Shown here: positions 41,448 through 58,560 of the stretch, one piece after another
How the letters are laid out: each line of letters opens with the position of its first letter
How positions within the stretch are numbered: position 1 is the first letter of the stretch
Origin: an uncultured Desulfobacterales bacterium
GTDB lineage: Bacteria > Desulfobacterota > Desulfobacteria > Desulfobacterales > JBDRRP01
Assembly: GCA_964446485.1 (NCBI GenBank)
Contig: CAYUOU010000008.1
Span: 2,262-66,261, forward strand
DNA: 64,000 nucleotides
Direction: 5' to 3'
Program-made: the position numbers and the translations under genes
Notes under the pieces: generated by a model
Told to the model about the DNA's origin: nothing
Databases searched by the model: none
Seen by the model: the letters and a program-made list of their open reading frames with translations, nothing else

Positions 41448-41761
41448 GATGCCCTCCTTTCGTGCCATGTTGGCCCAAACCCTCGGGCTAAAGCCGAACA
41501 GAGCAAGCTGTCGGCGACCAATGGTCAAAGATTATGGGGCGACGTGAACGCCGTTTTTAGCATACCGGGTGGCGATGGTGTCTCGGCGGGGCGCGAGGAG
41601 GGTTGGGCTCAAATCGATGAGGAGGTCAGATGGCGGTGGTTTAGGCGGTGTTGAATCGATCCATTGCGTCATAGCGCGGTCATGGTATCGCGTCCCACTG
41701 AACAAATTGTATCGTCGTTACGCGCGCTTGTCAATTTGGCATCGACGCCTGAAATATAACC

Positions 41762-41820
41762 TTGACATCCGGGTACGCGCCTCGGATGATGCTTTTTCGA
41801 TGCCGAAAGGCATCAGCATC
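41762..41820 (+). promoter_or_regulatory. candidate promoter plus 5' leader hairpin upstream of metF
   Basis: TTGACA (41762-67), 17 nt spacer, GATGAT (41785-90). A hairpin follows: GATGCC-GAAA-GGCATC (41799-41814, GNRA loop), extended by GATGC/GCATC (41788-92 / 41816-20). Confidence 0.4.
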
Positions 41821-41877
41821 CTACGATGCGTTGTCTTTTGCCCGAACGCTTCGCTCACCTTACCAGGACGCCTCGCC

Positions 41878-43428
41878 ATGCTGCGCGTATTTCAAAACGA
41901 CATCCTGGACCCGGAGCAATTCGTCGTGACGCTGGAGCTGGTGCCGGGACGGGAGTCCACCGGCCGTGTTGTGGACACCGTGATGGGTGTTGCCACTGAC
42001 GCCTTTTCCGACGGTCGGGTGTCCGCGGTGTCCATGACGGACAATCCCGGCGGCAATCCGTCTCTAAGCCCGGATGCCATCGGCCATCGAATATTTTCCA
42101 TCGGCATGGACGTCATCGTGCATTTCACCTGCCGCGACATGAACCGGGCGGGGATGGAAAGCCGGGCCCTTCAGCTGGCCATGATGGGGATGAAGAATAT
42201 TCTGGCGCTGACCGGAGACTACGCGGGGCAGGGTTTCGGCGGGCAGGGTGCCCCGGTGTTTGACCTTGATTCCGTGACGGTTCAGATTATGCTGGAACTC
42301 ATCAGCGGGCGGATCAAGGCCGCCGGTGACCCCGACGGCTTTTTCACCGGTTGCGCCGTTTCCCCCTTCAAGCGCACCGAGGGGGAAACCTTTGCCCAGT
42401 ACGCCAAGCTGAGCCGCAAGGTGGCGGCGGGCGCCAAGTTTGTCATCACGCAGCTTGGCTATGACGCCGGCAAATTCCATGAACTCATGGGCATTCAGGC
42501 CCGGATGGGCATCGACGTGCCGACCCTGGGGTCCGTTTACCTGCTCACCCCCGGTGCGGCGCGCATGATGAATCTGGGGCGCGTGCCGGGCGCGGTGGTT
42601 TCCGACAAACTCCTTCACACCGTTGAAAAGGAGTGGGCGGATAAAAAGGCGGGAAGGGACGCGGCCGTAGAACGAGCGGCACGGCTGGGCGCCGTTCTCC
42701 GGGGGCTGGGATATCGGGGGATCCACATCGGGGGCGTTCATAAACAGTTTGATACGGTTGGACGCATCCTGGATCGCATGGAAGTGATCAAGAACGACTG
42801 GCGGCACTTCATTCCCTTTTTCAACAACCCGCAGCCCGGTGGGTTTTACGCTTTTCGTGAACCGCCCCCGGCAGCGGTGACCACGACCCGGTTCGGAGAG
42901 TGTCGGCCAACACTTTCAGGGGCAGATCGTGCACTGTATGCCTTTCTGGCCGGATCGCACCGGATCTTCTTCAATTTTGATGCGCCCTTTGCACCGGTGT
43001 TTCGCGCCTTGTGTGCCCGATTGACCAATGGATTCTGGGGGCGGTTGTTTTTTCACTTGGCCGAGCACCCCGTCAAGCGATTGTTGCTGGGCTGCCGACA
43101 GTGCGGCGACTGCGCCATCCAGCACGTGGGGTTTCTCTGCCCTGAGTCCGGGTGCCCCAAACACACACGAAACGGCGCCTGCGGCGGGAGCAGAGACAGC
43201 ATGTGCGAAGTGAACCCGGATCGGCCCTGTGTGTGGTTTCGGGCCCACAACCGGTGGGCGGCGGAAGGAAAAGCGAAGGAGATGTGCAATGGGTGTGTGC
43301 CGCCGCGCATGTGGGAGCTCGACCGCACCAGTTCGTGGATCAACTTTCATCTGCGCCGGGACCATCACAGCGCCGGCTCTGAAATTGCCCACTTCTGCCG
43401 GGAGACGACGTGCCGCCTCATCGCGTAA
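41878..43428 (+). CDS. metF: methylenetetrahydrofolate reductase fused to a MetV-like C-terminal zinc-ribbon/Cys domain
   Basis: 516 aa from the ATG at 41878, with a MetF TIM-barrel region (VVTLELVPGR...HFTCRDMN...LALTGDY). The C-terminal GCRQCGDCAI...CPESGCPKHTRNGACGGS matches the MTHFR_C (MetV) pattern. Confidence 0.85.
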   Translation: MLRVFQNDILDPEQFVVTLELVPGRESTGRVVDTVMGVATDAFSDGRVSAVSMTDNPGGNPSLSPDAIGHRIFSIGMDVIVHFTCRDMNRAGMESRALQLAMMGMKNILALTGDYAGQGFGGQGAPVFDLDSVTVQIMLELISGRIKAAGDPDGFFTGCAVSPFKRTEGETFAQYAKLSRKVAAGAKFVITQLGYDAGKFHELMGIQARMGIDVPTLGSVYLLTPGAARMMNLGRVPGAVVSDKLLHTVEKEWADKKAGRDAAVERAARLGAVLRGLGYRGIHIGGVHKQFDTVGRILDRMEVIKNDWRHFIPFFNNPQPGGFYAFREPPPAAVTTTRFGECRPTLSGADRALYAFLAGSHRIFFNFDAPFAPVFRALCARLTNGFWGRLFFHLAEHPVKRLLLGCRQCGDCAIQHVGFLCPESGCPKHTRNGACGGSRDSMCEVNPDRPCVWFRAHNRWAAEGKAKEMCNGCVPPRMWELDRTSSWINFHLRRDHHSAGSEIAHFCRETTCRLIA

Positions 43429-43479
43429 GAAAAGAAAAGGGCAGACGCACCCTTTCAGACCCCTTCAGGAGCAACGGCA

Positions 43480-44388
43480 ATGGGAAAAACGGTTACCGCG
43501 GGCTGGATCACGCAGGCCATTGAGGCATTTATCGCCACGGCGCCCGAGAACACCATGGACACCGGTGATGGTGAGCCGGCGTGGGACTCGGCCCTGGTGG
43601 GTTTTGCTTCCGGCGCCGATCAGATTTGGCAGCAGTACAAGGAATATGTCGGCGCCTTTCATTGGACGCCCTGGGAGGTTTTCAACCAGCACCGGCCGGA
43701 GAGCAATGCCAGTGCGGACCAATTGACCGTCATTTCCTGGGTCCTCCCCCAGCGAGAGGCCGTGCGACAGGCCAACCGCCGATCACGCAAGTACCCCGCC
43801 GAAGCGTGGGCGCGGATCAGGGTTTACGGTGAAGCATTCAACGCCGCACTGCGGCAGCACGTGGTGACATGTTTGTCGCAGACCGGACACGCCGCGGTCG
43901 CCCCGATGCTGACACCCAACTGGACCATCGTCCAATCGAGGCGATTCTCTTATGCGTCTTCCTGGTCGGAACGCCATGCCGCCTATGCCGCCGGCCTGGG
44001 GACCTTCGGCCTCTGTGATGGACTCATCACGGCCAGGGGCAAAGCCATGCGAACCGGATCGGTGGTCGCCAAATTGGCCATCGCCCCCACCCCGCGACCT
44101 TATACCGATCACCACGCCTACTGCCTATATTATACCAACGGAAACTGCGGAAAATGCATTGACCGCTGTCCCGTTCGCGCCATCTCCGGCGCCGGGCACG
44201 ACAAGGAGAAGTGCCGGCAGCATTTGGCCCGCTCAAGCGCATATGTGAAGCGAGCCTATCGGTTCGAGGGATACGGGTGCGGTCTATGCCAGGTGGGCGT
44301 TCCCTGCGAGGCGGGCATACCGGTCAAGGCCGCGAGGGAAGCGCTGGAACGCGGTGAATTGCCGCCACCCCCGCCGCCGCTGGCTTGA
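43480..44388 (+). CDS. QueG/reductive-dehalogenase-like Fe-S protein (epoxyqueuosine-reductase family)
   Basis: 302 aa, WSERHAAYAAGLGTFG..., with two Cys clusters: NGNCGKCIDRCPVRAI and GYGCGLCQVGVPC. Confidence 0.7.
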   Translation: MGKTVTAGWITQAIEAFIATAPENTMDTGDGEPAWDSALVGFASGADQIWQQYKEYVGAFHWTPWEVFNQHRPESNASADQLTVISWVLPQREAVRQANRRSRKYPAEAWARIRVYGEAFNAALRQHVVTCLSQTGHAAVAPMLTPNWTIVQSRRFSYASSWSERHAAYAAGLGTFGLCDGLITARGKAMRTGSVVAKLAIAPTPRPYTDHHAYCLYYTNGNCGKCIDRCPVRAISGAGHDKEKCRQHLARSSAYVKRAYRFEGYGCGLCQVGVPCEAGIPVKAAREALERGELPPPPPPLA

Positions 44389-44404: not shown

Positions 44405-46108
44405 CTACAGGTGGTACATGGTCTTTTTCCGCCAGAGGGTCACGCGGGAAATGCCCAGGGCCTTGGCGGCCGCGGTCTGGTTGCCGTCGTGCTCGTCCAA
44501 CGCGTCGGCAATGGCCCGACGTTCCTTGGCCAGCTTTCGTTCGCGACCGGATGGGAGCGGCCCTGCGGGGCCATGATCGACCGGCGATGATGCGGCTTCT
44601 GGAACGATGACGTTGAGCGGAAAGCAATCGGGGAAGATTTCGGACCCCGTACTCATGGCGAGGGCATGCTCGATGGCATTTTCCAGTTCACGGATGTTGC
44701 CGGGCCAGTGATAGCGGTGCAGCATTTGCTGACTGGCGAGATTGAGTTTCTTGGGATGTCTGGGGTCTTTTTTCTGGTGTTTGCGGATGAAATGATTGGC
44801 CAAGGTGAAGATATCTTGTGACCGATCCCTCAGGGGGGGGATCGTCAGGGGGATTACCGCCACCCGGTAGTAAAGGTCCAGGCGAAAGGCGCCTTGCCGC
44901 GCCACAGCCGGCAGGTCGTGGTTGGTGGCGCAGATGATGCGAACGTCTACCGGATAGGAGCGGTCCGATCCCACCGGCCGAACCTCCCGCTCCTGAAGTG
45001 CGCGCAACAGCTTGACTTGCATGGCCTTGTCCAGTTCACCAATTTCATCCAGAAACAGCGTGCCCTCCTGGGCTTCCCGGAAAAGCCCGGCCCGATCGGA
45101 AATGGCCCCGGTAAACGCGCCTTTCACGTGCCCGAACAATTCTGACTCTATGAGTGCCTCCGGCAGCGCGCCGCAATTGACGGAAACAAATGGGTTTTCC
45201 TTACGGTGGCTTTGGGCGTGAATCGCCCGGGCCGCCACCTCTTTGCCCACACCGGTCTCCCCCATGATCAAAACGCTCGAATCCACTTCCGCACACCGGA
45301 GAATCGTTTCGAAAACCAGTTGCATCCTTTTGCCGGAGCCGATCATCTCTGTCTGCAATGCGTTGCGCCGCAGTTGCCGCCGGAAGTGGAACAGCTCCCG
45401 CTCCCGTTCGGCCAAGCGGATGTTATCGGTGATGTCGGTGAGGGTTTCGGCGTGGGCAAACAAACGCCCCGTGTGGTCGTAGATCGGACGGATTTCTCCC
45501 ACGAACTGGCGATTCTGGCCCGCCACCGTCAATTCCAGCTTGACCGGGCCTACGGTATCAAGGGGCAGCATGGGCGTTTCACGGCTTGTATGCAGGGCCG
45601 TGCTTTCGGCGTTGCCAAACATGAAGCACCCCCGATCATCGAAGATGGATACGCCGTCCCGGATGCCGAAAAGAATGCTTTGAAGCATTTTCTTTTCCTT
45701 CTCCAGGTCATCGCGGATCCGTTTTTGTTCGCTCACATCCACGAGCAGTACGTTGGCCGAGGCCGGCCGCCCCTCGGTGGTGTGATTGATGGACAGGTGA
45801 AAGAGCACCGGAATTTTTTCCATGTGTTGGCGACCGTACACATAGAGCTCAAATTGAAGGGACTCCGCTTCGCCGTTGATGAGACGCATGACGATCTTTT
45901 CTACCTTGATGCGCTCTTCTCCACTGATCAGCGTGAGCATGTTCTTGCCGATCATGTTGTCTCGCTTGGCACCGGTAAGTTTCAGAAAGGTCTCGTTGAC
46001 ATCCTGCAGGATGAAATCGAGATCTACCAGCCAGTAGCTGATTTTCAGGTAATCCAGGATGCGCTTCAGGTTGTCGTTTTCGGCCGGCGACAGAGGGTGT
46101 CGTTTCAT
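44405..46108 (-). CDS. sigma54-dependent transcriptional activator (PAS-PAS-AAA+-Fis HTH)
   Basis: 567 aa with GETGVGKE Walker A, the GAFTGA sigma54-contact loop, and a C-terminal HTH ([18 protein letters not shown]). Confidence 0.95.
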
Positions 46109-46130
46109 GAAGACGCCTTGATGTTTTCCG

Positions 46131-46180
46131 AATTCGTTTCAACGATGTTGCAACATTGTTCACACTATTTGAAACAATTC
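46131..46180. promoter_or_regulatory. nested palindromes, candidate enhancer (UAS) for the sigma54 activator
   Basis: AACGATGTTGCAACATTGTT (46141-46160) has the perfect 12 bp core ATGTTGCAACAT. It is flanked by GAATTCGTTTCAA (46130-46142) and TTGAAACAATTC (46169-46180). Confidence 0.5.
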
Positions 46181-46250
46181 GAGTTGTCAATAAATCCAGA
46201 CCATCAGAATAATAATGTAAAATCAATAAGGTGAGCGCCCGCAGAACAAC

Positions 46251-46266
46251 TGGCACCATTCTTGTT
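46251..46266 (+). promoter_or_regulatory. candidate sigma54 (-24/-12) promoter of the carboxylase operon
   Basis: TGGCAC (46251-56), N5, TTGT (46262-65). The consensus is TGGCAC-N5-TTGC. It lies ~115 nt upstream of the first gene and ~100 nt downstream of the palindromes. Confidence 0.55.
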
Positions 46267-46382
46267 GCGTTTGCCCACTGCGCCGGCCTCTGTCGCCGAC
46301 ATCGCCTGTCAGATAGCCCTCCACCAACAGGAACCATGCACATCCCCCTTGCCGGAGATGCAGCAGGAGAGGATTCACCGGA

Positions 46383-47999
46383 ATGACCGTGATCGAAACC
46401 CAGATCGATACCCGATCGGATGCTTATCGGGAAAACTACGACACGATGGCGGAGCTCGTGGGGGACTTGAATGCGGAATTGAAAAAGTCATTGGAAGCGC
46501 GTTCGGAAAAATCCCTGAATCGGCTCAAGGAAACGGGCAAACTGTCCGTGCCGAAGAAACTGGCCCTGCTTCTCGACCCGAACACCCCCTTTCTCGAGAT
46601 CGGTCCCCTTGCCGCCAAGGGGATGTACGATGGCAAGATCCACAAGGCCGGCGTCATCATCGGCATCGGTGTCGTGGCCGGCAGAGAAGTACTGGTGTTT
46701 GCCAATGACCCCACCATCAAGGGCGGCGCCTCCTACCCCATGACCGTAAAAAAATCGCTTCGCGGCCAGACCATCGCCATGGAGAACCGACTGCCCATGG
46801 TCAATCTGTTGGATTCCGCCGGTGCGTTTCTGCCGATGCAATCCGAAATTTTCCCAGACGCCGACGATGGCGGCCGCGTTTTTTACAACCAGGCCCGCAT
46901 GAGCAAGATGGGCATCCCCCAGATCACCGCGGTCATGGGGCTTTGTACCGCTGGCGGTGCCTATATACCGGCCATGAGCGATGAGGTGGTCCACGTGCGG
47001 GGCCACGGTGCGATATTCCTTGGCGGGCCACCGCTGGTCAAAGCGGCCACGGGGGAAGAAGTCTCGGCGGACGAGCTGGGTGGCGCGGAGTTGCACTGTG
47101 CGGAATCGGGCGTTTCGGACTATTACGCCGATGACGACGCCCACGCCATAGAGATTATGCGGCAGATCGTTTCGCACTTGCCGGAAACACCAAAGACGCG
47201 GCTGACGAACCGGGTCCCGGCACCGCCAATCTATGACTCCAAAGAGATTTACGGCATTGTGCCCAGGGACATTGCCGCCCCTTACGATATCCGGGAGGTC
47301 ATCGCCCGCATTGTGGACGGCAGTGAATTCATCGAGTTCAAGGAAATGTACGGCGCGACCTTGGTCTGCGGGGTTGCCCACATCCATGGCTACCCGGTGG
47401 GCATCCTTGGCAACAACGGGATACTCTTCTCCGAAAGTGCCTTGAAGGGGACCCAGTTCATCCAGTTGTGCGACCGCCGTCAAATCCCCCTGGTTTTTTT
47501 GCAGAACATCACCGGCTTCATCATCGGTCGCGACTACGAGCGCGGCGGCATAACCAAGAACGGCCACAAGATGGTCAATGCCGTCTCCACGGCCACGGTG
47601 CCCAAATTCACGATCATGGTGGGCGCCTCCTTTGGCGCCGGCAACTACGCCATGTGCGGCCGTGCCTACAGCCCGCGGTTTCTCTGGACATGGCCCAACC
47701 ACCAGATCGGTGTGATGGGCGGGCAGCAGGCGGCCGACGTCCTGATCACCCTGCAAAACGACCAGCGGGCCAGGGCAGGTCAGCCGCCCCTCACCGATGA
47801 AGAAGTGGCCTTTATCCGGGAGCCGGTCACCGAAGCGGCCCTGAAAGAGGGCAATGCGTATCACAGCACGGCCAATCTTTGGGATGACGGCATTATCGAT
47901 CCGGCAAAGACCCGTGATGTTCTCGGGTTGAGCATTTCCGCCGCCCTTAATGCGCCTATTCGGGACGACCTCCCGGGTTATGGCATTTTCAGGATGTAA
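46383..47999 (+). CDS. acyl-CoA carboxylase carboxyltransferase (beta) subunit, methylcrotonyl-/geranyl-CoA carboxylase type
   Basis: 538 aa. It aligns along its length with remembered LiuB/AtuC sequences (LLDPNTPFLEIG, TVKGG, PQITAVMGLCTAGGAYIPAMSDE, IFLGGPPLVKAATGE). Confidence 0.93.
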   Translation: MTVIETQIDTRSDAYRENYDTMAELVGDLNAELKKSLEARSEKSLNRLKETGKLSVPKKLALLLDPNTPFLEIGPLAAKGMYDGKIHKAGVIIGIGVVAGREVLVFANDPTIKGGASYPMTVKKSLRGQTIAMENRLPMVNLLDSAGAFLPMQSEIFPDADDGGRVFYNQARMSKMGIPQITAVMGLCTAGGAYIPAMSDEVVHVRGHGAIFLGGPPLVKAATGEEVSADELGGAELHCAESGVSDYYADDDAHAIEIMRQIVSHLPETPKTRLTNRVPAPPIYDSKEIYGIVPRDIAAPYDIREVIARIVDGSEFIEFKEMYGATLVCGVAHIHGYPVGILGNNGILFSESALKGTQFIQLCDRRQIPLVFLQNITGFIIGRDYERGGITKNGHKMVNAVSTATVPKFTIMVGASFGAGNYAMCGRAYSPRFLWTWPNHQIGVMGGQQAADVLITLQNDQRARAGQPPLTDEEVAFIREPVTEAALKEGNAYHSTANLWDDGIIDPAKTRDVLGLSISAALNAPIRDDLPGYGIFRM

Positions 48000-48005
48000 C
48001 TCGGC

Positions 48006-48116
48006 TCCGTAAAAAGCCCGATATCTGCGTTACGCGCATCCCTCGTCATTGCGGCGTACCATGCGTACGCCGCAGTCCTCGGGATTCGCAAGCCTTGATA
48101 TCGAACCTTTTACGGA
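48006..48116. repeat. 111 nt inverted-repeat element (MITE/REP-like or structured RNA) between operon genes 1 and 2
   Basis: 20 nt terminal arms TCCGTAAAAAGCCCGATATC (48006-25) and GATATCGAACCTTTTACGGA (48097-116). Central perfect hairpin TGCGGCGTAC-CATGC-GTACGCCGCA (48050-74). Confidence 0.75.
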
Positions 48117-48166
48117 ACCGTCTGGGATGCAACGTTTTGCGCCGCCATCAATGTAAAGGAAATTGC

Positions 48167-49657
48167 ATGTTTAAGAAAATACTGGTTGCCAATCGCGGTG
48201 AGATCGCCCTTCGCATAATGCGCACCTGCCGGGAGATGGGCATTGGCACCGTGGCCGTCCATTCTGACGCTGACGCGGCGGCACTGCACACACTCAGCGC
48301 CGACGAAGCGTTTCATATCGGCCCGGCCGAACCGGCCCAAAGCTATTTAAGTATGGCGCGTGTCATCGATGCCGCACGGCGTACCGGTGCCGAGGCCATA
48401 CATCCGGGCTATGGTTTTTTGGCGGAAAATGCCGAATTCGCCAAGCAATGCGACACGGCGGGCATTGTCTTCATCGGACCACCGGCGCAGGTGATCCAAG
48501 ACTTGGGAGACAAAATCAAGGCTCGGGAGATCATGCGGCATGGTGGGGTGCCGGTGATTCCCGGCATGAGCGCAGCGGCGAGCGAGCCTGCCGAGCTGGC
48601 GACCCACGCCGAAGCCATCGGCTATCCGGTCCTCATCAAGGCCTCGGCCGGCGGCGGTGGCAAGGGAATGCGTATCGTAGCAGCGCCGGCCGACCTCGCC
48701 AATGCCTGCGAAGCGGCCTCACGGGAAGCCGACGCCGCCTTCGGCAGCGGCGTTGTTTATCTGGAGAAGTATCTGGTTAAATCCCGGCATGTGGAGATTC
48801 AGATTCTTGCCGACGGCCATGGCAATGCCATTCACCTTTTCGAGCGGGAATGCTCCATCCAGCGGCGGTATCAGAAGATCATCGAAGAGACACCCAGCCC
48901 GGCGCTCACGCCGGACCTGCGCGACGCCATGGGACGCGCCGCGGTGGCGGCTGCGCGGGCATCGGGCTATGTGAATGCGGGCACCGTGGAATTCATTCTG
49001 GGCCCGGAAGGCGAATTTTACTTTCTCGAAGTCAACACGCGGCTTCAGGTGGAGCACCCCATCACGGAAATGATCACCGGCGTGGATCTGGTGCGCCATC
49101 AGATTGAAATTGCCGCGGGGAGCCCGTTGCGCATCGCCCAGGAAGACCTCTTTGCCCGTGGACATGCCATCGAGTGCCGCATTTACGCCGAGGACCCGGA
49201 GCAGCGATTTCTCCCATCACCGGGAAGGATCGTCTTTCTCCAGGAGCCGGCGGGACCCGGCATCCGGAACGACTGCGGCGTGTATGGCGGATGCGATGTC
49301 CCCGTGGAATACGACCCCATCCTCTCCAAACTGGTGGTTCATGCCGAAAACCGTGAACTGGCCATCCAGCGGATGATCCGCGCGTTGGAATCCTATGCCA
49401 TTCTCGGGGTGAAAACACCCATCGGGTTTCTTATCGATGTCATTTCTTCGCAGCCCTTTAAAGACGGAGAGACCACCACCGATTTCATCGATGTGCATTT
49501 TGGAGACTGGTCGCCGGATCGCGGCGGTCTGGATCTGGCCGTCCTTGCCCATGCCGCCGATGCCATGGCGCCGAAGGGTTTCGGGCCCCAGGTCGCCGGG
49601 GTGGCTAAAAGGCTCCATGTCGGCCCCTGGCAGGCTCTGGGACACTGGCGGCATTGA
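48167..49657 (+). CDS. biotin carboxylase subunit (alpha-subunit N-terminal part, no BCCP domain)
   Basis: 496 aa from the ATG at 48167 with AAAGGA RBS, MFKKILVANRGEIALRI and a full ATP-grasp. It ends ~45 aa after the BC domain. Confidence 0.93.
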   Translation: MFKKILVANRGEIALRIMRTCREMGIGTVAVHSDADAAALHTLSADEAFHIGPAEPAQSYLSMARVIDAARRTGAEAIHPGYGFLAENAEFAKQCDTAGIVFIGPPAQVIQDLGDKIKAREIMRHGGVPVIPGMSAAASEPAELATHAEAIGYPVLIKASAGGGGKGMRIVAAPADLANACEAASREADAAFGSGVVYLEKYLVKSRHVEIQILADGHGNAIHLFERECSIQRRYQKIIEETPSPALTPDLRDAMGRAAVAAARASGYVNAGTVEFILGPEGEFYFLEVNTRLQVEHPITEMITGVDLVRHQIEIAAGSPLRIAQEDLFARGHAIECRIYAEDPEQRFLPSPGRIVFLQEPAGPGIRNDCGVYGGCDVPVEYDPILSKLVVHAENRELAIQRMIRALESYAILGVKTPIGFLIDVISSQPFKDGETTTDFIDVHFGDWSPDRGGLDLAVLAHAADAMAPKGFGPQVAGVAKRLHVGPWQALGHWRH

Positions 49658-49827
49658 CATTGGACACACCCTCCGGGACCGGTACATATCGGGTCGCACG
49701 GGCTATTCTCGTTCAGGCGGGATCACCGCTGACCACGGGATACAAAATGACCCAAACAATGCCGGAAACCGCTCTCGGAAGTTGACGACTACCAAACAGG
49801 CTGCCTACACACGTGGAGACCCACACC

Positions 49828-50349
49828 GTGGAATACAAGCTCAAACACAATGAAGACATGATTGCGCTATCCGTCAAATCCGACGGCGAGGCCCGGTTCA
49901 CGGCGGTTATCGGGGAAACGTCATTCGACGTGGCGTACCGTCGGATTTCCAATCACGAGATTCACCTGACCGTCGACGGTCGGCAAGTCGCGGCTTTCGT
50001 GGCCGATACGCCGGATGGCACGGCCGTGATGGTAAAGGGCCGTGCTTGGCTACTCCAGGAGGCTCCCGCGCGAGGCGCCCGCCCCGGGAAGGGGCTGAAG
50101 GGCGGCCCTTTGACGGTGAGCCCCCCCATGCCCGCGGTGGTCACCAAGATTCTGGTTGCCGAGGGCGAAACCGTAGAAAAAGGCCAGGGCGTGGTGGTGG
50201 TGTCCGCCATGAAAATGGATACGACGCTGGCGGCACCCTTTGACGGCGTGGTTGCCCGCATCAACGTGGCCGAGGGCGACAAAGTCACCCCCAAACAGGT
50301 GCTGGTGGATATCACGCCGGTGCCTGCCAATGAATCGGCTGAACCTTAG
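49828..50349 (+). CDS. biotin carboxyl carrier protein with N-terminal BT-like beta domain
   Basis: C-terminal biotinyl domain with VVVSAMKMDT (AMKM). The GTG at 49828 has a GGAGA SD; the ORF-track start is at 49813. Confidence 0.85.
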   Translation: MEYKLKHNEDMIALSVKSDGEARFTAVIGETSFDVAYRRISNHEIHLTVDGRQVAAFVADTPDGTAVMVKGRAWLLQEAPARGARPGKGLKGGPLTVSPPMPAVVTKILVAEGETVEKGQGVVVVSAMKMDTTLAAPFDGVVARINVAEGDKVTPKQVLVDITPVPANESAEP

Positions 50350-50416
50350 ACCGGCTGTTGAAAAAAAATATTGCGCTTGGCTATATGGCATTCAATCGGA
50401 GAAAGGAGACCCGGAT

Positions 50417-51184
50417 ATGGCTGACAAGGATTTGCTCTACCGTGTCGAGGGCCACGTGGCCATGATCACCGTCAACCGCGAAGCCTCACGCAACGCCATC
50501 ACTCCCGATGCGCTGGTGTTGTTTCATGAGGCGCTGGACCAGGCCCAGGCGGATGATGCCGTGCGTGTGGTCTGCCTCACCGGTGCCGGGGACAAGGCGT
50601 TTTGCTCCGGGGCCGATCTCGGCGGCGTATCAACGGACAATCTGGGCGTTTTCGAAACCTACGCCAGACTCATCAGCCGCTTGACCCGGTTCCCCAAACC
50701 CACGGTGGCCCGGATCAACGGGCATTGCATGGCCGGCGGCACGGGGCTCATGCTGGGCTGCGATATCGTCATCGCCAAAGACACGGCCAAATTCGGCACA
50801 CCGGAAGTCAACGTCGGGCTGTTCCCCATGATGATCGGGGCGCTGATTTTCAGGAATGTGCCTCGTAAAAAGGCCATGGAAATGATCCTGCTGGGTGAGA
50901 CGCTGACGGCTGACCAAGCCCTCGACATGGGCCTAGTCACCCGCGTGGCGCCGCCAACGGATTTCGATGCGGAAGTAGAACGGGTGTTGTCGGCGCTGGC
51001 GGAGAAAAGCCCCATCGGCATGCGACTGGGAAAGGCGGCGTTTGCCGGCGCGGAAGCCATGCCGCTGGAAGGCGCGGTGCACTTTCTTGCGGGAAAGCTT
51101 GCCGAGGTGGCCGCCACCGAAGACGCCAGGGAAGGCATCACCGCCTTTCTGGAAAGGCGGCGCCCCGCGTTCACGGGAAAGTAA
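50417..51184 (+). CDS. enoyl-CoA hydratase/isomerase (crotonase) family, methylglutaconyl-/isohexenylglutaconyl-CoA hydratase-like
   Basis: 255 aa from the ATG at 50417 with AAAGGAG RBS, and the GAGDKAFCSGADLGG oxyanion-hole region. Confidence 0.9.
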   Translation: MADKDLLYRVEGHVAMITVNREASRNAITPDALVLFHEALDQAQADDAVRVVCLTGAGDKAFCSGADLGGVSTDNLGVFETYARLISRLTRFPKPTVARINGHCMAGGTGLMLGCDIVIAKDTAKFGTPEVNVGLFPMMIGALIFRNVPRKKAMEMILLGETLTADQALDMGLVTRVAPPTDFDAEVERVLSALAEKSPIGMRLGKAAFAGAEAMPLEGAVHFLAGKLAEVAATEDAREGITAFLERRRPAFTGK

Positions 51185-51309
51185 TCCCCACCGTTGAGCG
51201 GCTGCCATCGAAAAGAAACGATGTGAACGACATGGCCCGTGGAGATCGCGAAGAACGGCAGGAGATGAAAAGGCCGCCCCCACACAAGGACGCTAATAGA
51301 GGCAAACCC

Positions 51310-53088
51310 ATGCCACACCCAACAGCCGGCGACCCCCTGATTGTCGCCAATTGCAGCGGATTTTTTGGTGACCGACTGACAGCGGCCAGAGAAATGGTTT
51401 GCGGCGGCCCCATCCATGTGCTCACCGGGGACTACCTGGCCGAACTGACCATGGCACTGCTCTTCAAAAAGAAACTCAAGGCCCCGGACGCAGGATACGT
51501 ACCCACATTTCTCGGCCAGATGGAAGACATCATGGGCATGTGCCTGGAGAAGCAGATTCGGGTTGTGACCAATGCCGGTGGGTTGAACCCCGCCGGTATG
51601 GTCCAGGCCCTGACCACCCTGGCGGGAACGTTGGGACTGGCACCCAAGATCGCCTATATCGACGGAGACGATCTGATGCCGCGTTTGGCGGAGCTCCAGG
51701 CCGCAGGAGAGGCGTTCGCTCACCTGGACAAGGGCATCGAACTGGCCGCGTCACAGGCCATGCCCATCACCGCCAATGCCTACCTGGGCGGCTGGGGCAT
51801 CGCTGACGCCCTGGAACGTGGTGCGGACATCGTTGTCTGCGGCAGGGTCGCCGACGCGGCGTTGGCGGCCGGCCCTGCGGCCTGGCATTTCGGCTGGAGT
51901 CGCACCGACTGGGATCGTCTGGCGGGCGCCTACGCCGCCGGTCATATCATCGAATGCGGCGCCCAGGCCTCAGGCGGCAATTATTCCTTCATCCACGAAG
52001 TGCCGTCTTTTCACAACGTGGGATTCCCCATCGCCGAGATTCACGCGGACGGCAGCTTCGTTATCACCAAGCACCCGGGCACCGGCGGCCGGGTCTCGGT
52101 GGGCACGGTGACGGCCCAACTTCTTTACGAAATCGACGCGCCGCGCTACCTGACGCCGGACGTGGTCGTGCGCTTCGACACCCTAGCACTGGAGCAAGAA
52201 GGCCCCGACCGGGTTCGGGTAGAGGGCACACGGGGAGCGCCGCCCCCGGAAACCGCCAAGGTCTGCATCAACACCCTGGGGGGGCATAAAAATGCCATGA
52301 CGGTGATCCTCACGGGGCTCGATATCGAGAAAAAAGCCGAAATCGTCACCGAGACCCTGTTCGAGAGTCTGGGGGGGCGCGACCGGTTTCAGACCGTGGA
52401 CGTGCAGCTCGTGCGATCCGACAAAGTCGATCCGCCGTCCAACGACGAAGCCTTTGCTTTCTTGCGCATCACGGTCATGGACCCCGACGCCAATAAGGCG
52501 GGAAAATCCTTTTCGGCCGCCGTTGTGGAGATGGCCCTGGCCAGCATCCCCGGCTTTACGCTGACCGCCCCGCCGACGGCAGGCTCCCCGGCCGTGGTTC
52601 ATTGGCCCGCGCTGGTATCCGCCCGGCACGTTTCTCAGCAGGTGCATGTAAACGGCGACACCGTTTCCGTGGAAGCCACACCGGCGGGTCACGGATCGTC
52701 GTCAGTGGCGCCGACCGTGCGGCAGCTCCCCCCCGTTCCCGGGGGCCGCATGGTGCAAGTGCCCCTGGGCCATGCCTTTGCCACCCGCGCGGGCGACAAA
52801 GGGGGAAATGCCAACCTGGGTATCTGGGCGCAGACACCCGAGGCGTATGCGTTTCTGGCAACATTTCTGACCACGGAAAAGCTACGGGCGCTACTGCGGG
52901 ACTGCACCCCCTTCGCCATCGACCGGTATGAACTGCCCAATTTGCTGGCGCTGAATTTCACTATTCGAGGCCTTTTGGGCGAGGGCGTGGCCGCCTCGGT
53001 GCGAAGCGACCCCCAGGCCAAAACCCTTGGGGAGTACTTGCGGGCAAAAATCATCGACATGCCGGCGTCGATCCTCGTCATAAAATAA
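51310..53088 (+). CDS. atuA: acyclic terpene utilisation AtuA-family protein (DUF1446 with fused DUF4387-like C-terminus)
   Basis: IVANCSGFFGDRLTAAREMV...VLTGDYLAELTM is the DUF1446 N-terminus. The C-terminal ~100 aa (AGDKGGNANLGIWA...) resembles the small partner domain. Alternative starts at 51223 and 51232. Confidence 0.85.
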   Translation: MPHPTAGDPLIVANCSGFFGDRLTAAREMVCGGPIHVLTGDYLAELTMALLFKKKLKAPDAGYVPTFLGQMEDIMGMCLEKQIRVVTNAGGLNPAGMVQALTTLAGTLGLAPKIAYIDGDDLMPRLAELQAAGEAFAHLDKGIELAASQAMPITANAYLGGWGIADALERGADIVVCGRVADAALAAGPAAWHFGWSRTDWDRLAGAYAAGHIIECGAQASGGNYSFIHEVPSFHNVGFPIAEIHADGSFVITKHPGTGGRVSVGTVTAQLLYEIDAPRYLTPDVVVRFDTLALEQEGPDRVRVEGTRGAPPPETAKVCINTLGGHKNAMTVILTGLDIEKKAEIVTETLFESLGGRDRFQTVDVQLVRSDKVDPPSNDEAFAFLRITVMDPDANKAGKSFSAAVVEMALASIPGFTLTAPPTAGSPAVVHWPALVSARHVSQQVHVNGDTVSVEATPAGHGSSSVAPTVRQLPPVPGGRMVQVPLGHAFATRAGDKGGNANLGIWAQTPEAYAFLATFLTTEKLRALLRDCTPFAIDRYELPNLLALNFTIRGLLGEGVAASVRSDPQAKTLGEYLRAKIIDMPASILVIK

Positions 53089-53168
53089 TATCGAAGCGCA
53101 AACGCATTTTGCGTGGTCTTCGGGCACTTGGCGTATAATCGGGCGGTTAGGCATGAAAGGGATCGACA

Positions 53169-53960
53169 ATGAAAGCGATCTGCAGCGATCTGGCCTGGGA
53201 GCAGCATTCCCTGGATGACCTGGTGAGCGGACTGGACGGGTCCGGGTGGGCGGCCGTCACCCGGTGCGCCGGGTGGACCGTCAAAGATGAGATCTGCCAT
53301 CTGGCATATTTCGATGCCACCGCTCGGCTGGCGGCCACCGACGCCGATGCGTTCACCCGTCACCTCATCGAGGACTTCGGTAAGATCAAAAGCATGGACG
53401 AGGTTGCCGAGATCACCCTGTCTCGGGGGCGCGCCATGGCCGTCGACGACCTGCTGGCGTGGTGGCGGGAGGAGCGCCGACGGCTCTTGGCGGCGTTGAC
53501 GGCACTGCGCCCCAAAGACCGTCTCGCCTGGTATGGTCCGCCCATGAGCGCTTTGTCGTTTGCCACGGCGCGACTCATGGAAACCTGGGCCCACGGGCAG
53601 GATGTCTACGATGTCCTGGGGCGTCGGCGGTCGGCGAGCCCGGGCCTCAGGCACATCGCGCATTTGGGTGTTTCCACCTTTGGCTGGAGTTTTTCCGTTC
53701 GCGGCCTGGAAGTCCCCGATACGCCGGTGCGTGTCGAATTGACGTCGCCTGCCGGCGAGCCATGGGTCTGGGGAGATGCGGCCTCCGTGGAGGCCATCGC
53801 CGGGGTGGCCGAAGACTTCTGCCTGGTGGTGACCCAGCGACGGCATGTGGACGACACCGACCTGGTCCTTACCGGCGATACGGCGCGCCAATGGATGCTG
53901 GTGGCGCAGGCCTTTGCGGGGCCGCCGGATAACGGGCCGCCCGCGGGAACTTTCGCATAG
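53169..53960 (+). CDS. DinB/MDMPI-like metal-binding protein, TIGR03084-type
   Basis: 263 aa with the N-terminal four-helix DinB-like pattern (GWTVKDEICHLAYFD...METWAHGQDV). The family assignment is from memory. Confidence 0.7.
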   Translation: MKAICSDLAWEQHSLDDLVSGLDGSGWAAVTRCAGWTVKDEICHLAYFDATARLAATDADAFTRHLIEDFGKIKSMDEVAEITLSRGRAMAVDDLLAWWREERRRLLAALTALRPKDRLAWYGPPMSALSFATARLMETWAHGQDVYDVLGRRRSASPGLRHIAHLGVSTFGWSFSVRGLEVPDTPVRVELTSPAGEPWVWGDAASVEAIAGVAEDFCLVVTQRRHVDDTDLVLTGDTARQWMLVAQAFAGPPDNGPPAGTFA

Positions 53961-53991
53961 ACCGCCTCAGGACGGATTAAGGAGACGCAGC

Positions 53992-55143
53992 ATGACCAAG
54001 AATTTATATTTCACCAAGGAACATGAACAGGTGCGCAAAGCGGTCCGGGATTTCGTGAACAAGCGTATCAACCCGTTTGTCGACGAATGGGAGGAAAACG
54101 GTATCGCCCCCCTGCACGATCTCTTCAAAGAGATGGGGGAACTCGGGTTTCTGGGCATTCGCTACGATCCGAAATACGGCGGAGAGGGCCTCGACTTCTG
54201 GTATGAAACGGTGATGCTGGAAGAAATCTCCCATATCCACTGCGGTGGCATCCCCATGGCCATCGCGGTTCAGACCAATATGGCCACCCCGGCCATCGCC
54301 GAATTCGGCAGCGAGCACCTGAAGGAAACCTATCTGAAGGCGGCCATACGAGGCGAGATGGTGGGGGCCATCGCCGTCACCGAGCCGGACGCCGGCTCCG
54401 ATGTGGCGGCCCTGAAATCATTTGCCAAAAAAGAGGGCGATGTCTACGTACTGAACGGATCTAAAACCTATATCACCAACGGCACGCAGGCGGATTTCCT
54501 CATGCTGCTGGCCCGGACCAGTGACGCGCCGGGTTACCACTGCTTCAGCTTGTTCGTCGTTCCCACCGACTTGCCGGGGTTCAAAGTCAGCAAAAAACTG
54601 GACAAGCTCGGTATGCGCAGCAGCGACACGGCAGAGCTTTACTTTGACAACGTGCGCATCCCCGCCGAGAATCTCATCGGCCAAGAGGGCGAGGGATTCA
54701 TCTACCAGATGCAGCAGTTCCAGCACGAACGCTTTGCCGCGCTGCCCATGAGCTACATCGGCGCGGAAGACATCATCCGGGATACCGTCGCTTATTTGAA
54801 GGGGCGGGTGGTTTTCGGAAAGCCGCTGATCAAAAAGCAGGTTTTGCGTCACCGCCTGGTGAACTGGCTCAGCGAGATCGAATGCCTTCGCCAGTTGACC
54901 TACCACATCGTGCGCATGAAAACCGCCGGCATGGATGCCACACGGGAGATTTCCATGGGCAAACTCATGGGCGGCCGGGTGTTGAACGCCGTTGCCGACG
55001 GATGCCTGCAGATGTTCGGCGGCATGGGGTTTATGAACGACATGCGGATATCCCGGGCCTTTCGGGATGCGCGGCTCATTTCCATCGGCGGCGGCGCGAG
55101 CGAAGTCATGAGCGACGTGTTGGCCAAGCTGGAAGGCTTTTAA
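53992..55143 (+). CDS. acyl-CoA dehydrogenase
   Basis: 383 aa with AAGGAG RBS, VTEPDAGSD, YITNG and the C-terminal catalytic region. Confidence 0.93.
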   Translation: MTKNLYFTKEHEQVRKAVRDFVNKRINPFVDEWEENGIAPLHDLFKEMGELGFLGIRYDPKYGGEGLDFWYETVMLEEISHIHCGGIPMAIAVQTNMATPAIAEFGSEHLKETYLKAAIRGEMVGAIAVTEPDAGSDVAALKSFAKKEGDVYVLNGSKTYITNGTQADFLMLLARTSDAPGYHCFSLFVVPTDLPGFKVSKKLDKLGMRSSDTAELYFDNVRIPAENLIGQEGEGFIYQMQQFQHERFAALPMSYIGAEDIIRDTVAYLKGRVVFGKPLIKKQVLRHRLVNWLSEIECLRQLTYHIVRMKTAGMDATREISMGKLMGGRVLNAVADGCLQMFGGMGFMNDMRISRAFRDARLISIGGGASEVMSDVLAKLEGF

Positions 55144-55203
55144 GCCAGGGGCCGGGAAACGACGCCTCGGTGCCTGCGGTGGTGGTTTCACGTAGGAGAG
55201 AAA

Positions 55204-56364
55204 ATGATGGCAACAAGCGGGAAGACGGCCGCGGGCCTCGACTACTTCACCAAGGAGCAGGAGCGGTTGCGTCAAACGGTTCTCGAAGTGGTAAAAAAAG
55301 AGGTGCTGCCCCACATCGACGACTGGGAAGAGGCCGGTGAATTCCCGCGATCCATTTACGCCCTGTTCGGGGATTTGGGATTTCTGGGGGTGGGCTTCCC
55401 CGAAGCGCTGGGGGGCTCCGGCGGCGATGTGTTCGATATCATCGCGGTCAGCGAAGCGTTGATGCGTGCCGGATCGGGCGGATTTGCCGCCGGTATCGGC
55501 TCCTTAAACATTGCCCTGCCGCCCATCGTCCAAAAAGGGACTGAGGCGCAAAAGGAGCGGTTCGTGAAGCCGGTGCTGGCGGGACGGCGCATCGCCGCAT
55601 TGGGCGTCACCGAGCCAGGCGGAGGTTCCGATGTGGCCAACCTCCAGACCACGGCCGTACGCGACGGGGGGTGTTACATCGTCAACGGCAGCAAGACCTT
55701 TATCACCAGCGGCGTCCGGGCCGACCAGTTGACCTGTGCGGTGCGCACCGGGGGGGACGGGGCTCACGGCATCAGTTTCTTGATCATCGAGAAAGACGCA
55801 CCCGGCTATTCGGTGGGTAAACCTTTGAAAAAGACCGGCTGGTGGGCTTCGGATACCGCCGAAATCTTTTTTGACAACTGTCGGGTGCCGGTTGAAAATC
55901 TCATCGGTGAAGAAAACCAGGGATTTTACACCATCATGGAGAACTTCCAGATGGAGCGCCTCCAGTTGTGCATCATGGCCAACATGACCGCACAACTCGC
56001 CCTGGAAGCAGCCCTCGAATACACCCAGTCGCGCACCGCCTTCGGCAAGCCGTTGCAGGGCTTCCAGGTCACCCGCCACAAGCTGGCCGATATGGCCACC
56101 CTGGCGACGGTGAGCCGGGAGTTCACCTATCGGGTGGCCGCAAAGATCAACGCCGGCATCGACCAGGTAAGAGAGATCTCAATGGCCAAAAACTTCGCCT
56201 GCAGCGTCGGCGACCGGGTCACCTACGATGCAGTGCAGTTTTTCGGCGGTTACGGATATATGCGCGGCACTCTGGTGGAGCGGCTCTACCGTGACAACCG
56301 CATCCTCTCCATCGGCGGCGGCACCACTGAGATAATGAAAGAAATCATTTCGAAACTGCTGTAG
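55204..56364 (+). CDS. acyl-CoA dehydrogenase (second paralogue)
   Basis: 386 aa, VTEPGGGSD, FITSG. It is paralogous to the preceding gene. Confidence 0.93.
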   Translation: MMATSGKTAAGLDYFTKEQERLRQTVLEVVKKEVLPHIDDWEEAGEFPRSIYALFGDLGFLGVGFPEALGGSGGDVFDIIAVSEALMRAGSGGFAAGIGSLNIALPPIVQKGTEAQKERFVKPVLAGRRIAALGVTEPGGGSDVANLQTTAVRDGGCYIVNGSKTFITSGVRADQLTCAVRTGGDGAHGISFLIIEKDAPGYSVGKPLKKTGWWASDTAEIFFDNCRVPVENLIGEENQGFYTIMENFQMERLQLCIMANMTAQLALEAALEYTQSRTAFGKPLQGFQVTRHKLADMATLATVSREFTYRVAAKINAGIDQVREISMAKNFACSVGDRVTYDAVQFFGGYGYMRGTLVERLYRDNRILSIGGGTTEIMKEIISKLL

Positions 56365-56451
56365 CGGTTTTCATTGTCCATCAACATTGAGCAGTAAATT
56401 CGACCGATTGCTCCTTTTTGCCAACCAAACACGATCACCCGAAAGGCCCCC

Positions 56452-57420
56452 ATGCCCGAGGCACTGTTTCCCGACCTGTTTCGCATCCGGATCCCGCTGC
56501 CCGAGAGCCCGCTCAAGTATCTCAATGCCTATGTCATCAAGTCCGATGACAAAAATCTGCTGGTGGATACGGGGCTCAACCGCCAAGAGTGCTTCGATGC
56601 CATGACCGCCGGCCTCACGGACCTGAATGTCGATCTGACGCGCACCGATTTTTTTATCACCCATTTGCATGCGGATCATTTCGGGCTGGTCAACCGGCTG
56701 GCGACCCCCTCTTCAAAAATCTATTTCAACCGCCCGGACAGCGAACTTATCGAATCCTGGGAAGGGTTCGACCCCATGATCGCCTACGGCGGCCAAAACG
56801 GGTTCCCGGAAGACGAACTGCGTGCGGCGCTCCACAATCACCCGGGATACAAGCATGGCTCGGAGTGGATGCCGGCGCTGAGCATCATCAATGACGGATA
56901 TGTCTTCGATATCGGAGGCTACCGGTTTGAATGCGTCCTGACGCCCGGTCACACTGCCGGGCACATGTGCCTCTACGAACCCACCCACAAAATTTTGATC
57001 GCCGGCGATCACCTGCTCATCGACATTACCCCGAACATCCAGTGCTGGTCCGATGACGACAACCCTTTGAAAAGCTATCTGGCCAGCCTGGACAAGGTGC
57101 GCGCGCTGGACGTGGAACACGTGCTGCCGGGGCATCGCCGACTTTTCACCGACCACCGCCGCCGCATCGATGAATTGAAACGCCACCATGCCGTCAGGGC
57201 GGAAGAAGCCCTCAAGATCCTGGGCGATGGTCCCATGAGCGCCTATGCGGTGGCTTCGAAGATGCGGTGGGACATCCGCTGCGATACCTGGGAGGCCTTT
57301 CCCGTGGCCCAGCGCTGGTTTGCCACCGGCGAGGCCATTTCCCATTTACGCTATCTTGAGGACGAAGGGCGCCTTGTCCGCCAACGTATCGGCAATGCTA
57401 CTATCTACAGCCTTTCCTGA
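56452..57420 (+). CDS. MBL-fold metallo-hydrolase with C-terminal wHTH-like tail
   Basis: 322 aa with the THLHADHFG (HxHxDH) motif. It is the last gene of the operon. Confidence 0.85.
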   Translation: MPEALFPDLFRIRIPLPESPLKYLNAYVIKSDDKNLLVDTGLNRQECFDAMTAGLTDLNVDLTRTDFFITHLHADHFGLVNRLATPSSKIYFNRPDSELIESWEGFDPMIAYGGQNGFPEDELRAALHNHPGYKHGSEWMPALSIINDGYVFDIGGYRFECVLTPGHTAGHMCLYEPTHKILIAGDHLLIDITPNIQCWSDDDNPLKSYLASLDKVRALDVEHVLPGHRRLFTDHRRRIDELKRHHAVRAEEALKILGDGPMSAYAVASKMRWDIRCDTWEAFPVAQRWFATGEAISHLRYLEDEGRLVRQRIGNATIYSLS

Positions 57421-57630: not shown

Positions 57631-58236
57631 TCATCCGTGCGGTGAGCAGGGCAGATGTTTCTCACCCATGACAACCGGATCGTAAAGATCAGGAAAATAA
57701 TACGGAAGCACCGGCAGGAGCAGCCCGATGGTGAGCGGCGCCCGGTGATTGTCTGATTGAAGCAGCCCTTCGCTCAGCAGCGCACTGACCGTTCGCCGGG
57801 CGGTGCGCTCGCTCATGTTCAGAATGCCCACGGCCTTTCCGCGGGCGATGGCGCCGCGCACAAAGACCGCTTTGAGGAGCGCGGCCAGAAACAGGCCCGA
57901 AAAGAGACGCGCCACCCGGCCGTTGCCGTCTCTGAACGGGTGGAGCCAGGTGAGCCGGTGGTGGCTTGCCGCCATGGCCATCAGCCGCTCGTCACCGTGA
58001 AAACGCCCGGGGCTGTAGATTTGTGCAAAGGCGTTCATCAGCGCCGACTGGATCTCCGGAATGGTGGTTTTGTGTCCCTCGATCAGGTTGCTGTAATAGC
58101 TGTTGACAAGCCGCAGGCGATCACCGATGGCGCGAGCGGTTTCCGGCGCCACCCGGCCCTCCAGCCGGAATGACGCACAAACGATCTCCTGGGCCATGTC
58201 CTTGATAAGTCCGCTGTCGTCTGTTCCGGGCAACAC
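57631..58236 (-). pseudogene. Fic-family protein, short/degenerate
   Basis: The core motif HPFRDGNGRVARL is present, but the protein is only 201 aa, against about 330-380 aa for typical Fic-plus-wHTH proteins. It has a GTG start with no SD, and the frame is closed by a TAA at 58282-84 just upstream. Confidence 0.55.
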
Positions 58237-58260
58237 CGGTGTCAGCGTCAGCTCGATATT

Positions 58261-58284
58261 TTTGGCCGGTTCTTTGGCCGGTTA
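58261..58284. repeat. 12 bp tandem duplication
   Basis: tttggccggttc tttggccggtta (11/12 identical), immediately upstream of the Fic remnant. In the fic frame it encodes PAKE-PAKN. Confidence 0.7.
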
Positions 58285-58560
58285 TTCACACCCATTTTTT
58301 GACTGTTTATCGAGTTTGCAACTGCGGGTGTTTCCTGCCAAACAGCTTTTCACGGCAGGTAAGAATGCGCAGTGAAAAGTGATCTCGCGGCACCCTGGAC
58401 AAGAGGTGGTAGCCACTGTACCTTGCATCCTGTGCGAACCGTTGTCAGCTCCACGGATAATCATTTCGTCATTGAGTGGAAGTTGCCCAAAACGCATTGG
58501 CGGTTTAAAAGACGGATAGCGTCGTCCATCGCCCACGCGACGTTACTGGGAAACCCAAAC

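Follow-up and report, generated by a model that had tools for sequence, protein, structure and literature searches.

The Atu system of Pseudomonas (atuABCDEFGH) relies on an enzyme set of acyl-CoA dehydrogenase (ACAD), gamma-carboxylating biotin carboxylase, crotonase and AtuA. The same enzyme logic recurs in a nine-gene operon from an uncultured Desulfobacterales bacterium (contig CAYUOU010000008.1), which we analysed within a 64,000-nt stretch of DNA, here called the window. Both systems have in common the selectivity Gly of the carboxylase and the two-domain architecture of AtuA. The window carboxyltransferase (CT), however, groups as a sister of methylcrotonyl-CoA carboxylase (MCC) that retains the 3-residue MCC insertion and falls outside the clade combining Gly/Ser with a deletion, and the alpha subunit consists of two separate proteins. 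A sigma-54 activator takes the place of the TetR-type AtuR, and TIGR03084 and metallo-beta-lactamase (MBL)-fold genes are added, in a Desulfobacterales-like host; the AtuB/AtuG short-chain dehydrogenases/reductases (SDRs), the AtuH ligase and the AtuR TetR repressor are absent from the ~50 larger window open reading frames (ORFs) scanned. On balance, the operon probably serves beta-decarboxymethylation, as a module acting on 3-methyl-branched acyl-CoA thioesters larger than C5, e.g., isoprenoid-type acids, in a Desulfobacterales-like anaerobe. In anoxic sediments, isoprenoid lipids represent a large pool of carbon; how strict anaerobes process their methyl branches is poorly defined at the gene level, and the operon offers a testable candidate.

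The Liu/MCC pathway supplies the nearest CT relatives (55-57% identity to characterised MCC-beta subunits) and follows a like reaction type and order of chemical steps. It differs in that the window CT has Gly for Phe191, the window contains no lyase of 3-hydroxy-3-methylglutaryl-CoA (HMG-CoA) lyase (HMGL) type, the ACADs are not nearest to isovaleryl-CoA dehydrogenase (IVD), and the proposed product of AtuA is free acetate, not acetyl-CoA. Thauera operates an Atu/Liu pathway under denitrifying conditions (PMC4847356), and Desulfococcus multivorans degrades isovalerate via Mcc and HmgL (PMC5109826).

CmlAB (PDB 9erq/9evf; E. coli O157 ECs_0760/ECs_0759) possesses the PF07287 fold and cleaves a tertiary beta-hydroxy acid with release of acetate. 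CmlA is 16% identical to the window AtuA in the structural alignment and 25% over the hhalign-aligned core; it differs in acting on a free acid rather than a CoA ester, in having a separate DUF4387 small subunit instead of a fused PF23544 domain, and in its glutamate-fermentation gene context. According to a passage in a review that cites unpublished work (PMC12016498), the AtuA-like pair ThnQ/ThnS of the thn operon (anaerobic naphthalene degradation, culture N47, a sulfate-reducing deltaproteobacterium) cleaves a tertiary-hydroxy acyl-CoA; it differs as a two-subunit enzyme, and the review's table gives the thn operon without a biotin carboxylase. A literature search for AtuA or such a cluster in sulfate reducers returned the thn operon only. 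The M. tuberculosis operon Rv0971c-Rv0976c (echA7-fadE12-accA2-accD2-fadE13-Rv0976c), compared by description only, resembles the window in uniting a carboxylase, a crotonase and two ACADs. Its last gene product, Rv0976c, we take to be an AtuA-family protein. AccA2-AccD2 has no assigned role, and the operon is strongly induced by hypoxia (PMC9283954).

Operon architecture

The nine same-strand genes span 46383-57420 and diverge from the PAS/sigma-54 activator gene (Table 1), in agreement, by coordinates and by hidden Markov model (HMM) families, with an earlier note made from the letters of the window alone. All ten families are confirmed with Pfam and NCBIfam HMMs, including each enzyme family that the note had named (PF01039, biotin carboxylase, Biotin_lipoyl, crotonase, PF07287, TIGR03084, ACAD, Lactamase_B). 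Its assignment of DUF4387 within AtuA gives way to PF23544 as the C-terminal domain. For four genes, the ORF-limit starts were moved downstream: biotin carboxylase (BC, 48167), enoyl-CoA hydratase (ECH, 50417), AtuA (51310) and ACAD1 (53992). The gaps between the nine genes measure 31-167 nt, and none contains a terminator-like site.

Table 1. Features of the operon and its control region, in window coordinates
Feature	Coordinates	Strand	Evidence or remark
Sigma-54 enhancer-binding activator: N-terminal PAS, ~120-aa segment without family, AAA+ with GAFTGA, HTH_8	44405-46108	-	Pfam
Candidate activator-binding site: inverted repeat GTTTCAA...TTGAAAC around palindrome TGTTGCAACA	46136-46176		Sequence and repeat search
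-24/-12-type promoter TGGCAC-N5-TTGT	46251-46266	+	~117 nt 5' of CT start codon
CT beta subunit of gamma-carboxylating acyl-CoA carboxylase, MCC sister lineage, Gly163	46383-47999	+	PF01039 472 bits
BC, ~50-aa C-terminal tail	48167-49657	+	Pfam and NCBIfam, all three domains
Partial BT domain and biotin carboxyl carrier protein (BT-BCCP), AMKM, Lys134	49813-50349	+	Biotin_lipoyl 59 bits
Crotonase-family ECH, proposed alkylglutaconyl-CoA hydratase	50417-51184	+	ECH_1 187 bits
AtuA-family protein, PF07287 and ferredoxin-like PF23544	51310-53088	+	Proposed 3-hydroxy-3-alkylglutaryl-CoA:acetate lyase
TIGR03084 metal-binding protein, DinB/MDMPI N-domain and C-domain	53169-53960	+	Proposed double-bond isomerase or other accessory
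ACAD1	53992-55143	+	Pfam; C-terminal IGGGA
ACAD2	55204-56364	+	Pfam; C-terminal IGGGT
MBL-fold metallo-hydrolase	56452-57420	+	Lactamase_B 76 bits

Carboxyltransferase lineage and selectivity residue

The window CT scores 668 bits against PaMCC-beta (P. aeruginosa), 649 against M. tuberculosis AccD1, 645 against human MCCB and 471 against PaGCC-beta, the subunit of geranyl-CoA carboxylase (GCC), and its best PDB match is MCC. According to Jurado et al. (2015), Phe191 (human numbering) blocks geranyl-CoA in MCC, and GCC combines a Gly at this position with a 3-residue deletion; the F191G variant of PaMCC has essentially no 3-methylcrotonyl-CoA activity and gains geranyl-CoA activity (PMC4673880). 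An alignment without gaps places window Gly163 at human MCCB Phe191, the HFGR motif of MCC being replaced by DDGGR. Each of the 120 closest database homologues (identity 74% or higher) has this Gly, 119 of them carrying DDGGR, as does each of the 20 linked CT orthologues examined. The GCC-type 3-residue deletion is seen only in AtuA-linked CTs of 42-49% identity.

A neighbour-joining tree (50 bootstraps, four characterised MCC-beta references) resolves the DDGGR CTs as a monophyletic clade (50/50), with the MCC-beta references monophyletic to the exclusion of the window CT (49/50). The DDGGR clade, the MCC references and the CT of locus L063 form one clade (44/50), which is sister to the Gly/Ser-plus-deletion clade (50/50). 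By sequence, the CT thus represents a lineage of its own next to MCC, and its gate is GCC-like. The earlier note had read the operon as Atu-like and sigma-54/PAS-controlled and not as a standard Liu operon, a view that is supported. The CT lies beside, not within, the MCC clade and has a changed gate residue, and the AtuA and TIGR03084 assignments hold in HMM searches. Classifying the CT as a plain MCC from bit score alone was rejected; a Gly-bearing, deletion-type CT also scores higher against PaMCC than against PaGCC, so raw similarity to PaMCC does not settle the matter. An exhaustive representative search for the CT was uninformative, the clustering at 50% identity merging the DDGGR clade with MCC.

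Some DDGGR-bearing orthologues (P0138, P0149, P0152, P0154) carry the public annotation "methylcrotonoyl-CoA carboxylase". Judged by the gate motif, this label is probably a systematic misannotation, and the whole clade bearing it probably has another substrate. Close CT homologues also occur in Smithella.

AtuA is linked to a third CT type, 40-41% identical and with Ser at the gate, in the Desulfobacterales-related loci L009, L018 and L030, so several AtuA-based modules coexist in the group. The gene order in L009 and L018 is AtuA-ECH-TIGR03084.

The alpha subunit (BC-BT-BCCP) is encoded as two ORFs 155 nt apart, not as one polypeptide, and this split is maintained in 19/19 related loci (defined below) and in locus L082. 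The biotinylation motif AMKM lies at residue 132 of BT-BCCP. The BT_MCC_alpha match in this protein covers model positions 42-117 only, at 24.8 bits, below the cutoff of 31. The break therefore seems to lie within the BT domain, and the C-terminal tail of BC may carry the start of that domain.

AtuA as the candidate lyase

AtuA scores 543.8 bits with PF07287 (cutoff 22.8), and its C-terminal PF23544 domain scores 64.5 bits. PDB sequence searches with AtuA, as a single sequence or as a 43-sequence profile, gave no match. Its AlphaFold2 model (predicted local distance difference test, pLDDT, 79; predicted template-modelling score, pTM, 0.81) yields one significant Foldseek match in the PDB, 9evf_A, the citramalate lyase - ADP - pyruvate complex (E 4e-17, target TM-score 0.65). 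The E. coli O157:H7 protein ECs_0760 matches 9erq_A/9evf at 970 bits, under the deposit name "AtuA family protein | Citramalate lyase, subunit A (cmlA)". Encoded by a 456-aa gene downstream of methylaspartate ammonia-lyase, ECs_0760 (CmlA) is itself a PF07287 member (68 bits) with the DUF4387 protein ECs_0759 as its neighbour, and it has been flagged as DUF1446 (PMC4682846). Aligned by hhalign, the AtuA profile matches ECs_0760 with 82% probability and shows no relation to the DUF4387 small subunit.

Citramalate cleavage and the reaction proposed for AtuA are chemically alike: in both, acetate leaves a tertiary carbinol. Because of this shared chemistry, we read AtuA as the lyase candidate of the operon, where it would fill the place of the apparently missing lyase. 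The fold match to CmlA and the ThnQS cleavage of a tertiary-hydroxy acyl-CoA also speak against the earlier statement that the function of AtuA is not established. The window protein is thereby tied to a lyase of solved structure.

Acyl-CoA dehydrogenases and putative accessory enzymes

The best PDB matches of the two ACADs are the mycobacterial ACADs 3r7k and 3oib (283 and 394 bits), with IVD at 226-233 bits; ACAD2 scores 394 bits against 3r7k_A vs 226 against IVD, and only for ACAD2 does long-chain acyl-CoA dehydrogenase (LCAD) clearly outscore IVD. Likeness to the mycobacterial accA2/accD2 operon, suggested earlier, gains from these matches, which favour mycobacterial structures. Both ACADs have Gly (IGGG[AT]) where medium-chain acyl-CoA dehydrogenase (MCAD) has its catalytic Glu376, which we take to be the IVD/LCAD arrangement. 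This residue fits bulky or branched substrates and identifies none.

The TIGR03084 protein scores 318.8 bits with its NCBIfam model (cutoff 247.95), and its His/Glu/His triad (H44, E138, H142) is invariant. In the AlphaFold2 model (pLDDT 94), the best fold match of both domains is mycothiol-dependent maleylpyruvate isomerase (2nsf/2nsg, E ~1e-6), and the C-terminal part is weakly similar to sterol carrier protein 2. A literature search for TIGR03084 found no papers; the family gains a concrete hypothesis here.

Distant TIGR03084 genes (56-58% identity; L085:517-10971, L087:1-10756, L086:1410-9795) adjoin GT4, PIG-L deacetylase, FemAB-like and double-GNAT genes, a set that presumably resembles mycothiol- or bacillithiol-type thiol biosynthesis. 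Beside them in L085 and L087 lies, in addition, a different carboxylase/BKACE/ECH cluster, and in L086 two ACADs and an old yellow enzyme (OYE)-type reductase. Such neighbourhoods hint at a thiol dependence of the TIGR03084 family and at a tie to acyl-CoA carboxylation.

The MBL gene has no tblastn match in 80 AtuA-anchored loci. At the end of the Desulfosarcina alkanivorans cluster lies an MBL-fold gene with 67% identity to the window copy, so the gene is probably part of the operon unit, with a patchy distribution.

Conservation across related loci

The related-locus set comprises 19 loci with a CT at 69% identity or more to that of the window, drawn from Desulfobacterales-type metagenome-assembled genomes (MAGs), Desulfarculus and Spirochaetota. 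CT, BC, BCCP, ECH and AtuA are syntenic in every one of them (19/19), and the arrangement is therefore more than chance. ACADs are present in 17/19 and the sigma-54 activator in 6/19. The nearest AtuA relatives belong to Desulfobacterales MAGs (up to 81% identity), and the cultured Desulfatitalea tepidiphila and Desulfosarcina alkanivorans possess homologues of AtuA or the TIGR03084 protein. The actinobacterial locus L080 links CT, BC, TIGR03084 and AtuA.

AMP-binding acyl-CoA ligases lie inside the clusters of L003, L022, L043 and L082, and L006 contains a matching 602-aa ORF, putatively of the same kind. The absence of a ligase is peculiar to the window, since relatives have ligases in the cluster. 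FadH-like OYE/Pyr_redox_2 (dienoyl-CoA-reductase-like) genes are found in the L021 and L032 clusters, with a matching 666-aa ORF, putatively of the same kind, in L023.

The D. alkanivorans locus (L082:1-17848; AP021874.1, 4140511-4161302) carries two AtuA paralogues and two acyl-CoA ligases. A hexapeptide-repeat protein occupies the expected place of the crotonase, and a 111-aa sigma-54 activator fragment may be a remnant.

Activator and promoter region

The activator scores 231 bits with Sigma54_activat, contains GAFTGA at residues 330-335 and carries HTH_8. A second PAS domain was not detected, residues 125-255 giving no Pfam match even at E<=10; the PAS-PAS architecture proposed earlier is thereby reduced to a single PAS. 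Divergent activator orthologues of 61-75% identity are present in five relatives (L001, L003-L006), and clusters without a sigma-54 activator have a TetR-family gene upstream.

Blocks of the inverted repeat and palindrome upstream of the operon are partly kept in L001 and L004, and we infer that the activator binds there. In the promoter motif, the -24 GG is present and the -12 element reads TTGT, lacking the consensus C. The sequence TGGCA[CT]-N5-TTG is unchanged at the same position in the window, L001, L004 and L005, with diverging flanks. A -24/-12 promoter, as called in the earlier note, has the conservation in four loci for it and the off-consensus -12 element against it. A sigma-70-like site, TTGTCA-18-AATAAT (10/12 matches; 46184-46213), lies between the candidate activator site and the -24/-12 motif and could drive basal transcription. 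Sigma-54 control of the operon is likely, because the activator has GAFTGA, the promoter motif is conserved and the upstream repeat blocks persist.

Proposed pathway

Building on the families, the synteny, the change of selectivity residue and the fold matches, we propose a scheme of catalytic steps, substrate class and regulation. The two ACADs would oxidise a 3-methylacyl-CoA to the 3-methyl-2-enoyl-CoA, whose double-bond geometry might be set by the TIGR03084 protein, the least certain of the steps. The three-protein carboxylase (BC, BT-BCCP and CT) would then carboxylate the 3-methyl group with ATP and bicarbonate, and the crotonase would hydrate the carboxylated product to 3-hydroxy-3-alkylglutaryl-CoA. 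From this, AtuA would release free acetate, leaving a 3-oxoacyl-CoA suited to ordinary beta-oxidation. Upon a signal, the PAS-containing sigma-54 activator would turn the operon on from the -24/-12 promoter.

Oxygen is required at none of the proposed steps. The earlier note had regarded oxygen-free operation as new biology; because no step needs O2 and Thauera and D. multivorans already employ Atu/Liu chemistry, this novelty falls away. The operon is most likely a variant of a known pathway whose oxygen-free operation is itself already known.

A broader reading joins these elements into a single, widely misannotated set: an MCC-sister carboxylase retooled by Phe->Gly for long 3-methyl-enoyl-CoAs, an acetate-releasing AtuA lyase, and TIGR03084 as a metal-/thiol-dependent E/Z enoyl-CoA isomerase. 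In anoxic sediments, such a set would let sulfate reducers and syntrophs mineralise isoprenoid lipids (phytol, archaeal lipids, terpenoids), and it would also account for the M. tuberculosis operon Rv0971c-Rv0976c that hypoxia induces. Taken as a whole, this reading is doubtful; the window operon may nonetheless bear on the mycobacterial one.

Alternative explanations

Several points weigh against a module for substrates larger than C5. By overall sequence similarity the CT is nearest MCC, it keeps the MCC insertion within the MCC-length segment PDADDGGR, and the tree in which it was placed omits PaGCC-beta (5ikl_B), AtuC and AccD2; the enzyme could still be C5-specific, because other residues could refill the pocket. 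The crotonase is uninformative: its PDB matches are generic, and none points specifically to known methylglutaconyl-CoA hydratases. The TIGR03084 gene is present in 8/19 related loci; as about half of the orthologous clusters lack it, its step must be dispensable. Ligase, thiolase and electron-transfer flavoprotein (ETF) genes were not found in the window, and the -12 element of the promoter departs from consensus. Of the absences listed in the earlier note, those of SDR, acyl-CoA ligase and HMGL-type lyase stand for the ~50 larger window ORFs scanned, which also lack a thiolase; the conclusion that there is no lyase does not, AtuA being a candidate.

The same MCC affinity of the CT, in identity and in best PDB match, would suit a Liu-type leucine/isovalerate operon, in which a true 3-methylcrotonyl-CoA carboxylase works with an AtuA that replaces HMG-CoA lyase (HMG-CoA -> acetate + acetoacetyl-CoA). 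The Gly at the position of the MCAD catalytic Glu in both ACADs, presumably of IVD/LCAD type, agrees with such an operon, as do the methylcrotonoyl-CoA carboxylase names given by NCBI to several CT orthologues and the degradation of isovalerate through MCC in sulfate reducers (PMC5109826). It is nevertheless unlikely: the gate Phe191 is Gly throughout the CT clade, the ACADs are closer by score to mycobacterial ACADs than to IVD, the isovalerate cluster of D. multivorans has HmgL and not AtuA, and C5 catabolism has no use for the FadH-like reductases of related clusters. Alicyclic or ring-derived acyl-CoAs (naphthenic-acid-like compounds, terpenoid ring-cleavage products), with AtuA opening or trimming a tertiary-hydroxy intermediate like ThnQS, would fit the orthologous cluster of the hydrocarbon degrader D. 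alkanivorans and the CT homologues of Smithella. Such substrates are improbable, given a gamma-carboxylase that requires a substrate of the 3-methyl-2-enoyl-CoA type, the lack of a biotin carboxylase in the tabulated thn operon, and the absence of ring reductases, hydrolases or a CoA-transferase from the window ORFs scanned. That the genes are neighbours without a common pathway, the carboxylase being anaplerotic or biosynthetic or the sigma-54 control spurious, is very improbable. The off-consensus -12 element, the sigma-70-like site and the TetR-family regulators that replace the activator in relatives would allow it, but the gene order is kept in all 19 loci, the short intergenic gaps are free of terminator-like sites, and the activator is divergent in five relatives, with a conserved promoter motif. 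The beta-decarboxymethylation module accordingly stays our preferred reading.

Window context

The remainder of the window consists of housekeeping genes, and an Rfam search of the window found nothing. Directly upstream of the activator gene, 41569-44388 encodes a 619-aa methylenetetrahydrofolate reductase (MTHFR)-like protein, whose C-terminal domain is DUF5981, and then a 4Fe-4S protein. Just 3' of the operon (57631-60201), a Fic-domain gene (-) diverges from a gene (+) for a 609-aa protein with MutS domains III/V only. A cytochrome bd oxidase (subunits I and II) is encoded at 4672-7084 (-), and relatives of the host genome are sulfate reducers; the oxidase is consistent with oxygen defence and not with aerobic growth. 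Within the operon, the 167-nt CT-BC gap contains a GC-rich stem-loop (48050-48074) whose 10-bp stem, TGCGGCGTAC / GTACGCCGCA, is perfect and whose loop has 5 nt; no T-run comes after it, and it could be an mRNA-stability or processing element.

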